Shown here: piece by piece, positions 4,980-64,000 of the stretch | Position numbering within the stretch: the first letter of the stretch is position 1 | Layout: the number at the start of each line of letters is the position of its first letter | Assembly (NCBI GenBank): GCA_965233585.1 | Contig: CBDDTI010000745.1 | Span: forward strand, 160,001 to 224,000 | DNA length: 64,000 nucleotides | From: a bacterium | GTDB lineage: Bacteria; SAR324; NAC60-12 | Reading direction: 5' to 3' | Program-made: the position numbers and the translations under genes | Notes under the pieces: model-generated | Seen by the model: the letters and a program-made list of their open reading frames with translations, nothing else | The model's database searches: none | Told to the model about the DNA's origin: nothing

Positions 4980-7312
4980 TTAGTCTGTAAACTCAATGTC
5001 TATATTTTTCTCAGCACCAGTAACCTTTGAAATATCAGCATTTGAGCCAAATGCTGCAGGTTGCCAAACGATTTTTATAGTCACATTTTGTTGGGTAGTG
5101 TGAGGGTTTGCGTTTCCTTCAAATGTGATGGCAACTTTTTTATTATTATCTTGAAGTTGAGCCTTTAACGTCAAACCACTGGGAACAGCTCCTCTAATCT
5201 GATAGTGCGTATCTTTGACAAGTTTGCCTTGGGGGGCATTTTGTGCTTTAAATTGATCCACACCTTCTAAAGTTACTTCCAATATTCCATCTAAAGACCC
5301 GTCATTGGCAGTCTTTTCTGTAAATTTGGTTGCATTATTTTGGTAAACATACTTGATTTCGTTAGGAAGTTTGGCTCCGCCATTGTTACCTCCATTATTA
5401 TTTCCACCGCCATTGTTGTTATTTTTTGGGGGTAGCTTTGCTAACTCTGTTCTTAATTGAGCAAGAATTTTTTCACCTGCACTGACATTATAAAAATAAA
5501 TGGTTTCTGTTCCTGTTTTTGAATCATATGACATGATACGCTATGGCTTGTTGTCATCATAGTCAGCATCATAAGTCACGACAAGATTATTGAAAGGTCT
5601 TGTATATCTCCCATAGATTAAGTAGTCTTTTCCATCTTTGGTCTTAATCTCATAGTCTCTAAGGTAATACGATTTTTTTGTGTCGTGATGATAAACCCAT
5701 TGTTCACCTCCTGAACCATCAGCTTTTGGATTTTTAAAGTATTCTTTATAATCATTCTCACCTCTATTTTTAGCATAAGACTCATCAGCTGCTTTAATAT
5801 AATCTGCGATGGTTGTTTGATCTAGGTAATCTTTCTTTGATTTCGTGCCACAATTTCTTGATGATGAACGAAAAGGTTCATCTTTAGCAGGACAATCCTT
5901 GTCATTTGGATATGCAATTTGACCAAAAGCTTTCCGTTGATAATTCCAAACATATTGAATGTCTCCTTCTCCAAAAGTGACAGAAACATCTTTGAGTGAT
6001 GCTGTACCATACCTTGCCCTCACTAGATCATTCATCAAAATGGTTTGACCTTTCAAGTCCACTGTCTTTGCTTTGTTGCCTTCTGCTGCCATAGTCTCAA
6101 AAACTGTTTTAATGTTATATCCACTTTTTGGCAATGTGTATTTAGCAATAGTTGTCTTCTCTGCTAACTCGTCATCTTCCAGTTTTTTTTCTAAGTTACT
6201 TTTCATCTCATAAATCTTAACTTTGGATTTAGTTAGGTCTAGCCTAAAAGTAAATTCAACAACTTTTTTACCACTCAAAAAGATGTCATTAAAACTGCTT
6301 CCTTGAGCTTTTGAGCTTCGCTGCACTTTTTCTTTAGCAAATTTGAGAGAATCTTTTGAGGCAGTCACCCCTAAATCATAATTGGCTTGTCCAAACTCTG
6401 CATCGTCAGCTGTCTTTTTCAAATCTTCCAAGCGATTGGAGGCTGTTTGCATGACAACCTGATTGATTGCTGTCAGGTCTGTATCATCAATGTTAGCAGC
6501 TTTCAAAGCTTCTTGAAATTGAGTCGTTTGTTTGACCAATTCTTTTGCCACTTTATGCAGCAATTCCGCATCTTTTTTGGTGTTGGCATCGGTGGCTTTT
6601 TTGTTGGGAATGTAGTCATCAAAAGCAGAGGCGGTGTAGTCTTTGCCATCGTGCATGTCTAGCTTTGCTAAAATATTTTGTTCAGCATCTGTTGGGTCTA
6701 AAGTGGGGTCTATGTCCATTTCTGCTTTAGCGAGGGTGGTCAAAGGAGAGATGACAGCTTGCTTGCCTGCTGGAGTAGAAAGAGTGTAGGGTTTAGCCAC
6801 TTTTGCACCTTTGTCATCTTTGTCTTTGGAATCTGCCGTGACCTCTGCAATGATGGGATAGTTTTCTTGGTCATCAATGACTTGGTCAAAGGCATACTTT
6901 CCAGTTGCATCAGTCATGGCAAAGGGTTCATCTGCATCACATTTGGTGTTTCTGTTTTTGTCAAGACAGACTTTGGCATTTTCAATATAGCCATCTACCA
7001 CTGTTCCAGCAAGTTTGGCTTTGGCTTGAGTGGTCGTCTTTTCTTGTTTTGTTTCAGAAGAGTCAGAGCTACTGTCATCATCATTTGCACAAGCGAAAAT
7101 GACAAAAATTGTCAGCGGAATGAGAAGAGTTTGAGTGAAAAAATCTTTAAAAAAGAAAGGAAAGTTTTTGAGAAAAACTTTGCGAGGGGGTGATTTTTGT
7201 CTTGACTTTTGAAAAAGCTGATTCAGCCTATAATAGATTGCGGATTGCGGATTGCGGATTGCGGATTGCGGATTGCGGATTGCGGATTGCGGATTGCGGA
7301 TAAATTTTCCAT
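4980..7312 (-). pseudogene. Phase-variable surface lipoprotein, currently OFF (heptamer frameshift) and split by an in-frame TAG at 5541-5543
   Basis: ATG 7312 gives MENLSAIRNPQ... and stops at 7223; the adjacent frame is open from the repeat through the signal peptide LLIPLTIFVIFA-C (Cys 7091-7089) into ORF 5541-7001; ORF 4980-5534 continues in the same frame after TAG CGT ATC. Confidence 0.85.
7239..7301 (-). repeat. Simple sequence repeat (ATCCGCA)9
   Basis: Nine perfect heptamers plus ATC, starting 11 nt after the A of ATG 7312. Confidence 0.97.
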
Positions 7313-7390
7313 GTCGTTACCTTTTTTAGGTTGATAATAAAAAGATGCTATTTAGACCATCATCTCAAATAGCTAGAAAAGAAGTAGAAG

Positions 7391-7419
7391 ATTGTAGCTG
7401 AGTCAAAAATGAAATGCAA
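7391..7419 (-). promoter_or_regulatory. Sigma70-type promoter TTGCAT-N17-TACAAT for the lipoprotein gene
   Basis: Near-consensus hexamers with 17-nt spacer; identical copy at 57219-57247. Confidence 0.75.
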
Positions 7420-7608
7420 GCGATTTTTTGAAAAATTTACAAAACATGGAATGATTGAAAAAATCATTTGTCTATCTCTTGCAAAAAATGAGACTTCTTT
7501 AGGTGTTTTTCTTCATGGAACAAAGATGAATCCACTTTTGACCTTTAAGTCACATTTGCTTTTTGGTTGCCAACTTGCTGGTGAGGTCTCAAGGCTGAGT
7601 CTGTGAGG

Positions 7609-14654: not shown

Positions 14655-15035
14655 TTAGTTGGGAGTAGGAAGAGAAGCAAACAAAAAGGCTAGCATGACG
14701 CCAAGTGTCACGAGATTTAAGGAAATGCCAAAACCCACCATCCATGACAACAGCTTGAATTTGCTATCAACTTTCTTATTGAGACTAGCAACCTGCTCTT
14801 TCGTCGCTTTTTGCTTCAGCTGCTCTTCTAAACTAGCAACCTGTTCTTTCGTCGCTTTTTGCTTCAACTGCTCTTCTAAACTAGCAACCTGCTCTTTCGT
14901 CGCAAGTTTGGAAAAGTTGCTTTCCACAACAGATTTAAATTCTTCTGTTAGTGCCTCTGCTTGTTCTTGTTCAAAGCCTGCAGATTGAAGATGTTTAGAC
15001 GTCTTAAGTGTGTCAAAAAGCAAAGCAGTTTCCAT
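14655..15035 (-). CDS. DUF1640/CCDC90-like coiled-coil protein with C-terminal TM
   Basis: FDTLK...L..AGFEQEQAEAL, repeated ATKEQV, C-terminal hydrophobic helix. Confidence 0.8.
   Translation of the reverse strand: METALLFDTLKTSKHLQSAGFEQEQAEALTEEFKSVVESNFSKLATKEQVASLEEQLKQKATKEQVASLEEQLKQKATKEQVASLNKKVDSKFKLLSWMVGFGISLNLVTLGVMLAFLFASLPTPN
14784..14903. repeat. 2.5 tandem copies of a 48-bp in-frame repeat
   Basis: ACTAGCAACCTG(C/T)TCTTTCGTCGC recurs at 14784, 14832, 14880. Confidence 0.92.
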
Positions 15036-57058: not shown

Positions 57059-57218
57059 ATCATTCTTGAATAGCTTTTTTGAAACCAGCATCCAAAAGTG
57101 ATACGGGTTTTAAAGAAACCAAGATGAGTTTTAGCTTTGACGTCAAAACTCACAGAGTAGCAAGCATGATTTGATTTTTTGCATCATCTGTATTTTTCTC
57201 AAATTTTACAAAAAGTGC

Positions 57219-57247
57219 TTGCATTTCATTTTTGACTCAGCTACAAT
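57219..57247 (+). promoter_or_regulatory. Sigma70-type promoter TTGCAT-N17-TACAAT (second copy)
   Basis: Identical to the reverse complement of 7391-7419. Confidence 0.75.
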
Positions 57248-57300
57248 CTCCTACTTCTTTTCTTGCTATTTAAGATGATGGTCTCAAGTAGCATCTTTTT

Positions 57301-59140
57301 ATGAACCTAAAAAATGTGATCTCATGCAAAATTTATCCGCAATCCGCAAAGTTTTTTCACCTCATTAAATCTTACTTCTCCAAACTCTTTCTCATTCCTC
57401 TTTCAATCGTTTTTGTTCTTTCTGCTTGTGCAGAAGATGATCAATCTGGTGACAATAAAGATGAGGATACCAGAGACTTTAACTTGGAGGACGGAAGGTT
57501 CAAACTGACCAAGATAGAGATTAGTGGTGGTACTTTTGAGCTGAATAAGGGTAGCAATTTCGGCATTGAGGTTAGATTGGGAAACAAAGTCTGCTTTTAA
57601 CTTCAAGTATGTCGGAAGAGGGTCATTCAATGCTGCTGATGGCACAACTCTGTCCATGTCTTGTAACCCCGATGTCACTGGCAAGCTGCAGTGGAAGAAA
57701 ATCAATAGTGATGGCATCGTAGAAGAAGCCATTTCAGAAAAAACCTTCTTTTTGCGAGACTGTCCTGTGGGTGCTGCTGATGTATTCAGACCTGAGGTAC
57801 AAGAATCAATCAAGATTATTACCGAAGGCATTGACGATGGATTCCTTGTGGAAATCAAAAATGACGGAGAACAAAACGTTCTCTATTTTGAGAATACGAC
57901 TCTCATACCTTTTCCAGCAAACGCAACAATCAAACTCTACTTCTCTAAAAAGGAAAACAAAGATGAGGACAAAGGAGATGCACCGCTCTCCAAAAAATGG
58001 TCTAAATTGCTTGGTACTAGCAGTGATGATCTTGCATATGGAGTAAGTGTAGATTCTTCAGGAAACGTTTACATGACAGGAGGCTATAGAGGAACTTTAG
58101 ATGATGGATTCTTTTCAAATTATGAGACATTTTTAGTTAGGTATAACAGTTCGGGTAACGAACAGTGGCGGTGGACTTTGGGAAAAAATATAGGAGCTGG
58201 AGTGAGTGTGGATTCTGCAGGAAATGTCTACGTCACAGGAGCCAAAGAGGACGTTGGAGAGGATGATGAAGACGTCGTCCTGTACAAGATTAACAGTTCA
58301 GGTGACTATCAGTGGGAAAGAGTTATCGGCACTAACAGTTGGGATTATGGGACAGGAGTGAGTGTGGATTCTGCAGGAAATGTTTACGTGGCAGGATACT
58401 CTGGAGGAGATTTTGATGGACACATCAATTCAGGAGGGTATGACATGTTTTTAATCAAGTATGACAGTTCAGGCAACAAGAAGTGGTCTAAATTGTTGGG
58501 GTCTGACAAGGATGACTCGGCACAAGGAGTGAGTGTGGATTCTGCAGGAAATGTCTACGTCACAGGAAGCTCCCAAGGAGACTTTGATGGACACACCAAT
58601 TTGGGAGAATATGACGTGTTTTTAGTCAAGTATGACAGTTCAGGTAACAAAAAGTGGTCTCGTCTGCTTGGCACTAGCAATAATGATTGGGGAAATGATG
58701 TGAGTGTGGATTCTGCAGGAAATGTCTACGTCACAGGACAGTTTGGACACACCAAGCAAACGGGAGGTAATATGTTTTTGACCAAGTATGACAGTTCAGG
58801 TAACAAAAAGTGGGCAAAATTGCTGGGGTCTGACAATAATGATTGGGGAGAATCAGTGAGTGTAGATTCTTCAGGAAATGTCTACGTCATAGGAAGCTCT
58901 TGGGGAAATTTTGACGGACATGCCAATTCAGGAGAACGAGACATGTTTTTGGTCAAGTATGATTCATCAGGCAACAAAAAGTGGTCTAAATTGTTTGGCT
59001 CTAGCAGTGATGATGATGCAAATGGAGTAAGTGTGGATTCTGCAGGAAATATCTACGTCACAGGAAGCTCTAAAGGAAATTTTGATGGACACGCTAGTTC
59101 AGGAAGTTGGGACATGTTTTTAGTAAAGTTTGGGCAGTAG
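57301..59140 (+). pseudogene. Lipoprotein with a C-terminal 7-bladed SBBP beta-propeller, frameshifted
   Basis: Signal LFLIPLSIVFVLSA-C (Cys 57427) in ORF 57301-57600; propeller in ORF 57566-59140 in another frame (shift between 57545 and 57597); seven VSVDSxGN(V/I)Y repeats; (ATCCGCA)2 at 57335-57348. Confidence 0.8.
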
Positions 59141-63704: not shown

Positions 63705-64000
63705 CTACCTCCCAAACTTCACTAACAACATGTCATAACTTCCTGAATTGACATGTCCATCAAAAGCTCCTTTAGACCATCCTGTCACGTAAACATTGCC
63801 TGATGAATCCACACTCACTCCTTTTCCAGAATCATTACTGCTACTGCCAAGCAGTTTAGACCACTTCTTATTACCTGAACTGTCATACTTCACTAAAAAC
63901 ATGTCATAATCTCCTGAATTGACATGTCCATCAAAATTTCCCCCAGAGCTTCCTGTCACGTAAACATTGCCTGATGAATCCACACTCACTCCTTCTCCAT
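63705..64000 (-). CDS. 3' end of a second SBBP beta-propeller protein (runs off the window)
   Basis: GVSVDSSGNVYVTG repeats at 171-bp spacing; C-terminus LVKFGR resembles LVKFGQ at 59140. Confidence 0.88.
   Translation of the reverse strand, partial: GEGVSVDSSGNVYVTGSSGGNFDGHVNSGDYDMFLVKYDSSGNKKWSKLLGSSSNDSGKGVSVDSSGNVYVTGWSKGAFDGHVNSGSYDMLLVKFGR

Follow-up and report, generated by a model that had tools for sequence, protein, structure and literature searches.

Two lipoprotein genes in the window (the whole stretch of 64,000 nucleotides analysed here, from a bacterium of the SAR324 lineage) start with similar DNA, including a heptamer array just past the start codon, and continue into bodies without visible similarity. 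Does this arrangement reflect a genome-wide family of surface proteins placed behind a portable module for expression, export and phase switching, as the initial annotation proposed, and if so, how would its members switch and how might the shared DNA have spread?

Two genes with a common 5' region

BLASTN of window positions 7421-7295 (minus strand, copy A) against the genome returns 57217-57341 (plus strand, copy B) with 88% identity over 128 nt (E 3e-39), confirming that the two stretches are homologous. As described, both carry an identical TTGCAT-N17-TACAAT sequence (7419-7391, minus strand, and 57219-57247, plus strand), a similar leader and the same start, followed by ATCCGCA arrays of 9 units at 7301-7239 and 2 units at 57335-57348, and their bodies are unrelated, mutual BLASTP giving no match at E 1e-3. 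Reading from the conserved ATG is out of frame in both and ends after 29 codons in A and 14 codons in B. The further claim, that both would be ON at n = 1 mod 3, holds for the signal-peptide frame of the two genes and fails for the body of B, which would still be broken. The shared module is also longer than the ~130 bp first assigned to it, as homology starts ~150 nt 5' of the ATG and, in undamaged copies, continues for ~150 nt beyond the array, to the lipobox.

The shared sequence of copy A reaches upstream to ~7465 and includes the predicted sigma-70-like promoter (7391-7419, minus strand, as are all features of this copy unless stated), a stem-loop in the 5' leader with a U-rich run behind it (7347-7373, -10.1 kcal/mol), and a weak Shine-Dalgarno sequence (AAAGGT, 7324-7319) with the conserved ATG (7312-7310). 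Beyond the perfect array (7239-7301) lie a conserved post-array block (7193-7238) containing the stops of both OFF frames, then a long basic n-region, a hydrophobic h-region and a lipobox (FAC) at 7089-7192, with the Cys codon at 7091-7089; no alternative in-frame start is present ahead of this lipobox. The lipoprotein body (5541-7088) has no Pfam or NCBIfam match, and its N-terminal ~180 residues are common to 17 lipoproteins with ordinary short signal peptides, which agrees with the proposal that the leader was joined to bodies of other origin. The frame closes at a TAG (5543-5541) and is directly followed, in the same frame, by a 184-aa orphan ORF (4980-5534) with an Asn/Gly linker, either a separate gene or a lost tail of A. 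No Shine-Dalgarno sequence is visible between the two, and the ORF finds no match in any of the 17 homologues. If the TAG is a premature stop, the product of A may be truncated even when ON.

In copy B (plus strand), the shared sequence extends upstream to ~57173 and contains the same promoter (57219-57247), a leader stem-loop (57264-57293, -11.4 kcal/mol) and the conserved ATG (57324) with (ATCCGCA)2, together at 57324-57348. A further in-frame ATG without a Shine-Dalgarno sequence lies upstream (57301). After 57348, ~70 nt have been lost, the post-array block among them; the signal peptide, its lipobox (SAC, 57421-57429, Cys codon 57427-57429) and the first body part occupy 57349-57600, and the remaining body 57566-59140. 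A second frameshift is located near 57568-57581, and the signal-peptide frame is closed by a stop at 57600, having run for 83 codons. Given the deletion and the second frameshift, a change in repeat number would yield a short product only and would not restore the gene; as judged from its sequence, B is decayed, a pseudogene rather than a working switch. An assembly error behind this damage was rejected, as contigs from sequencing runs X2 and X4 are identical to 57220-57727 and a second-sample contig (X1) matches 57534-57693, agreement that must be read with the fact that the three runs belong to one study and may themselves be the source of the assembly. In the run contigs, which cover the 2-unit array of B, no 7-base indel was seen.

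Copy B is itself composite, consisting of the leader, a domain of a repeat-free tandem family and an SBBP beta-propeller (6 stretches) common to the locus C746:304839. The tandem family comprises four ~200-aa lipoproteins at C747:643200-646000 (minus strand) that share the N-terminal domain of B, have signal peptides of their own and lack an array. The gene that ends at window position 63705, suggested as a possible further member, proved to be a 1270-codon ORF with another N-terminus. It encodes a surface protein (C745:223700-227500, minus strand) with SBBP repeats at its C-terminal end; an IS1-like ORF lies just upstream, and ~37 further copies of that IS end are found in the genome.

A family of array-bearing loci

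The assembly comprises 12 Mb in 747 contigs. Coding density is 79-87% in the five largest (2.9 Mb) and lower in most of the others. These five and C723 were treated as the bacterium, and the survey of perfect repeats covers these six; the ~9 Mb that lie beyond the five largest are mostly of low coding density and apparently non-bacterial, the stated contamination being 2%. The family does extend beyond two copies: eight array-bearing loci were found, spread over 4 contigs at least 50 kb apart and with unrelated neighbours. Besides A (n = 9, OFF, orphan lipoprotein body) and B (n = 2, OFF, body ending in the SBBP propeller), they are C746:71130 (n = 18, OFF, DUF7151), C746:488464 (n = 24, OFF, Kelch), C746:304839 (n = 2, ON, SBBP), C747:156588 (n = 8, OFF, a porin-like barrel without a lipobox), C295:101551 (n = 17, ON, no family match) and C747:846441 (10 units of the octamer ATCCGCAA, OFF, DUF7151 plus collagen). 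A further pattern match, C747:76971, has one unit and no ATG and was discarded as a chance match. The varied passengers foreseen are thus present, the bodies being of at least five unrelated kinds, all of them predicted surface or outer-membrane proteins (lipoboxes, the Pfam families SBBP, Kelch and DUF7151, porin-like look-alikes).

The position of the arrays is specific. Among 39 perfect repeats surveyed on the six bacterial contigs, seven have a 7-8-base unit in at least 8 copies, and six of these seven sit 6-26 nt past a family ATG. Repeat count sets the reading frame, two loci being in frame and six out, as expected for one in three. Both OFF frames terminate at most 4 codons from the array at 6/8 loci. 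No start that would bypass the array before the lipobox exists at A and C746:71130, and the sole candidate at C746:488464 and C747:846441 is a GTG within the h-region; B and C295:101551 depart from this pattern, the body of the latter being able to begin past the array. The copies with short arrays are either locked ON (C746:304839) or decaying (B). The genome encodes MutS and MutL domains (domain search) and therefore provides no mutator background.

We hold it probable that these loci undergo slipped-strand frame switching of the opa type on a shared leader resembling that of vpma/vsp genes, the leader having spread by duplication and recombination. The DNA itself shows where the arrays lie, that the frame depends on them, that the OFF frames stop early, that the bodies are unrelated and that the leader is a mosaic. 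Transcription would start at the shared sigma-70-type promoter, and translation from the conserved ATG would enter a perfect 7- or 8-base array, the export signal being reached, by prediction, at one repeat count in three and the other frames stopping soon afterwards. Slipped-strand mispairing during replication could add or remove units, toggling each surface protein independently. Gene duplication with homologous recombination or conversion may have distributed the leader, crossovers at or near the array joining it to unrelated bodies. The genome's separate poly-G lipoprotein family shows the same strategy.

A candidate antisense promoter past the array

On the plus strand of copy A, a promoter-like candidate, TTGACT-N16-CAGCCT (7202-7229), lies within the post-array block and is directed back into the array. 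A sequence of the form TTGA(C/T)T-N16-hexamer is present on the opposite strand in 9/9 loci that retain the post-array block, including both repeat-free relatives of the leader (C745:12375 and C745:26583), in which it is kept despite other amino acids and has the -10 boxes TACAAT and TGCAAT. This antisense promoter is a lead only, and a two-layer switch built on it, in which antisense RNA would cover array, start codon and leader and silence the gene, or in which convergent transcription would set the slippage rate, seems unlikely. The post-array block is poor in synonymous differences (4/76, all four involving one locus, compared with 32/108 and 21/83 downstream), but it also carries the OFF-frame stops and was possibly homogenised by conversion from the array. 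Of 1725 gene starts, 0.5% have a stricter version of the pattern, which codon redraws reproduce in 0.7-5.8% of cases, figures that apply to a pattern drawn up after viewing the family and to nine loci that are homologous, related by descent rather than independent. Heptamer changes at H. influenzae hmw are described as needing transcription (PMC12721329), which fits the convergent variant of this model; the -10 of A, CAGCCT, is poor, and the site is a prediction.

In an extension of the same idea, which we consider unlikely, the array and the post-array block would form a switch-and-export adaptor that recombination at the array can graft onto any surface-protein gene, the antisense promoter coupling frame switching to silencing or to the slippage rate, and the unit itself being replaceable. 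Three units have been found in the one slot, ATCCGCA, the octamer of C747:846441 and ATCCGAA, the last deduced for protein P0021 discussed below. An antisense promoter adjacent to a repeat array was not found described in the portion of the phase-variation and antisense-promoter literature covered by a limited look.

Switching or decay, and occurrence in other genomes

The slipped-strand reading has to be weighed against simple decay of paralogues. Slippage could have enlarged a neutral repeat until most copies were inactivated, the OFF loci being pseudogenes instead of a regulated repertoire, and B, the possible premature stop of A and a 1-base deletion in the C295 leader would accord with this, as would the many IS copies in the genome and the presence of the heptamer in intergenic arrays of many unrelated bacteria (among the matches listed). 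Against it, the four OFF loci outside the window have bodies that remain open over 367-823 codons, and arrays whose unit counts range from 2 to 24 among paralogues stay perfect and are confined to a single position, which three different units occupy. We therefore judge decay as the general explanation to be decidedly unlikely.

The arrays of other organisms lack this context. A scan of the genome collection for four or more heptamers returned at least 122 stretches; those in unrelated bacteria are, among the matches listed, intergenic, mostly of 4-5 units and without the leader context, and none of the 83 arrays examined from these matches combines an ATG within reach upstream with the downstream motif. 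The phylum set contains 88 genomes, and, among those searched, only this one represents its genus. The 87 others, which are sampled and often incomplete, yielded no matching module; one of them has a 3-unit array, intergenic and without the module. The leader profile matched in 6/87, and the four matches inspected are ordinary short signal peptides. As DNA, the module was found in 0/40 relatives and in none of the viral contigs, and a metagenome scan with the post-array block gave 0 matches; the one metagenome match to array plus motif was rejected as an unrelated intergenic repeat.

A profile of six leaders retrieved three proteins. Two are encoded in this genome, and the third, P0021, belongs to another assembly. 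A profile search of 1.84 billion representatives gave five matches: P0021, two proteins of this genome and two repetitive sequences, which were discarded as spurious. In P0021, ~17 units of a different heptamer are followed by the post-array peptide and lipobox of this family; if that array is perfect, the deduced unit can only be ATCCGAA, and the residues preceding it could conceal the family ATG in another frame.

A mosaic leader rather than a single cassette

For the slipped-strand reading, it remains to explain how one leader came to stand before unrelated bodies. The shared DNA was first described as a single portable cassette, a description that the survey does not support: the promoter block is present at only 5/8 array loci, and one further copy has neither array nor signal peptide. 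Three blocks can be distinguished. The first, promoter and leader (up to 150 nt), occurs at those five loci and alone at C747:1048433; the second, ~45 nt directly past the array, is found in 7/8 loci; and the third consists of the long n-region, h-region and lipobox, which is reached ~150 nt past the array. The bare promoter block at C747:1048433 precedes a dioxygenase-like gene (C747:1047376-1048320, minus strand), the first 54 codons of which are in a different frame from the remainder.

Within the first block, the -35/-10 spacer is 17 in 5/5 array loci with the promoter. The promoter of A scores 8.8 with a genome-trained matrix, at about the 90th percentile among best upstream sites; TTGCAT-17-TACAAT was not called by a consensus promoter scan (3/6 at -35). 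A hairpin of 11-13 pairs with a U-rich run is present in 5/6 leader copies. Its covariation is not above that of shuffles (87/500), a terminator scan called nothing at its position, and an Rfam scan of the window returned RNase P and one tRNA only, with no leader RNA match at the gathering score. It is possibly an mRNA stabiliser or a weak attenuator.

The two halves of the leader differ in divergence. Between A and C746:304839, 16/142 sites differ before the array and 44/150 after it, while C746:71130 and C746:488464 show the reverse (53/140 before, 18/150 after). This before/after contrast reaches p < 0.01 in 4/10 pairs and is not significant in 6/10, and the quartet site patterns counted to assess incongruence were too sparse for a verdict. 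These comparisons show a mosaic leader, its two halves differing in history, and not a fixed cassette.

Could promoter, leader, array and signal peptide nevertheless have travelled together, capturing passengers on the way, by a dedicated mechanism, be it a non-autonomous mobile element or site-specific recombination? The dispersal of the eight loci among unrelated neighbours and bodies invites this view, as do apparent grafts at B, at C747:1048433 (the promoter block alone) and at C295:101551, where the lipobox of the leader is out of frame and stands ahead of a gene with a second lipobox of its own. However, identity between copies is only 62-89% before the array and 65-91% after it, the promoter block is missing from three of the eight loci, the left ends of the shared block are ragged (-117 to -154), and no common terminal inverted repeats were detected in 4/4 loci scanned. 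No recombinase was recognised among neighbouring ORFs (judged by eye), IS-like ORFs lie upstream of 2 loci only, and the viral contigs hold nothing of the module. Such a cassette, in either form of the proposed mechanism, is thus very unlikely. An element of the non-autonomous MITE or Correia type is not supported, as the four loci scanned share no terminal arms and the ends are ragged; these observations point to duplication and homologous recombination instead of mobile-element transfer.

Relation to known switching systems

Slipped-strand switching combined with recombination of a shared leader has its closest counterpart in the opa genes of Neisseria, likewise a dispersed multicopy family in which a non-triplet 5' coding repeat sets the frame and copies recombine (as described in PMC3960869). 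As in opa/pilC-type systems, the repeat here is non-triplet and lies at the 5' end of the coding region, the frame is predicted to depend on its count, and the product is predicted to be at the surface; enrichment of such repeats at N-termini is reported as a known signature (PMC3315296). In opa, the coding repeats are CTCTT in the leader peptide, whereas here the unit has 7 or 8 bases, and the bodies, known from sequence alone, are lipoproteins of unrelated folds plus a barrel instead of one protein family. Neither A nor B nor 7 other bodies has a Pfam match indicating Opa homology.

In the vpma genes of M. agalactiae and the vsp genes of M. bovis, divergent mature parts are described as following conserved 5' untranslated and signal-peptide regions (PMC2268961). 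Those genes are clustered and switch by site-specific inversion (Xer1/Mbr) behind one promoter, whereas the present loci are dispersed, most with their own promoter (5/8), and the switch would be a coding repeat. A shufflon of that type was rejected in view of the spread over four contigs at intervals of at least 50 kb, with no adjacent tyrosine recombinase recognised (by eye). The vlp genes of M. hyorhinis resemble this family as independently switched surface lipoproteins forming combinatorial mosaics (PMC4198240, PMC2268961), but there indels in the promoter spacer switch transcription, an alternative rejected here given the constant spacer of 17 and the position of the repeat in the coding frame. 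H. influenzae hmw offers a heptamer contingency repeat, (ATCTTTC)n, an adhesin gene and a structured 5' leader (PMC12721329); its repeat is untranslated and grades expression, whereas the one described here is translated and predicted to act on/off.

The definition of putative mobile promoters (Nijveen, Matus-Garcia, van Passel) asks for upstream regions of unrelated genes that are 80% or more identical across a minimum of 50 nt (PMC3575422). A and B as well as C747:1048433 show such similarity, the last being the cleanest case, and 14/15 pairs of the 6 promoter copies reach 80% identity in local alignments of 104-151 nt. In contrast to the cases in that survey (PMC3575422), where similarity reaching into coding sequence is described as filtered out, similarity here usually extends into the coding leader.

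To call this an undescribed system would therefore be too strong, since opa, vpma/vsp and the putative mobile promoters already provide its parts. What would be new is the combination, in an uncultured lineage, of a slot occupied by three different units with a leader shared by unrelated folds. By analogy, the arrangement resembles the on/off switches of pathogens, and a review describes multi-locus phase variation as apparently restricted to these, perhaps through database bias (PMC11868660). No paper joining SAR324 with phase variation was found, and literature listings showed none on this leader module. With eight repeat-gated loci and a poly-G family, this uncultured marine-type lineage would widen the range of multi-locus phase variation; such loci would name the surface proteins most likely to be under host or phage selection, and one leader on unrelated folds would show a route by which new genes are recruited into a switchable repertoire.

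Other repeats in the genome

The separate poly-G lipoprotein family has 11 loci with a G8-9 run past the start, mostly flanked by the inverted pair TGTCA/TGACA (C745:319800; C746:322033 and 325730; C747:406714, 432718, 434463, 437002, 440890, 517875, 987142 and 990584). A second, independent candidate for heptamer contingency is a perfect (GTCGGAA)15 at C295:240617-240721, in the middle of a class I methyltransferase-like gene (minus strand). Long homopolymers are C14 at C729:57424-57437, within a minus-strand coding frame, and C13 at C295:21866-21878. At C746:197300-197550 (minus strand), the long n-region of a lipoprotein consists of two in-frame copies of a dispersed palindromic repeat, and the window itself contains a 48-base tandem repeat of 2.5 copies (14784-14903) within the ORF at 14655-15035.
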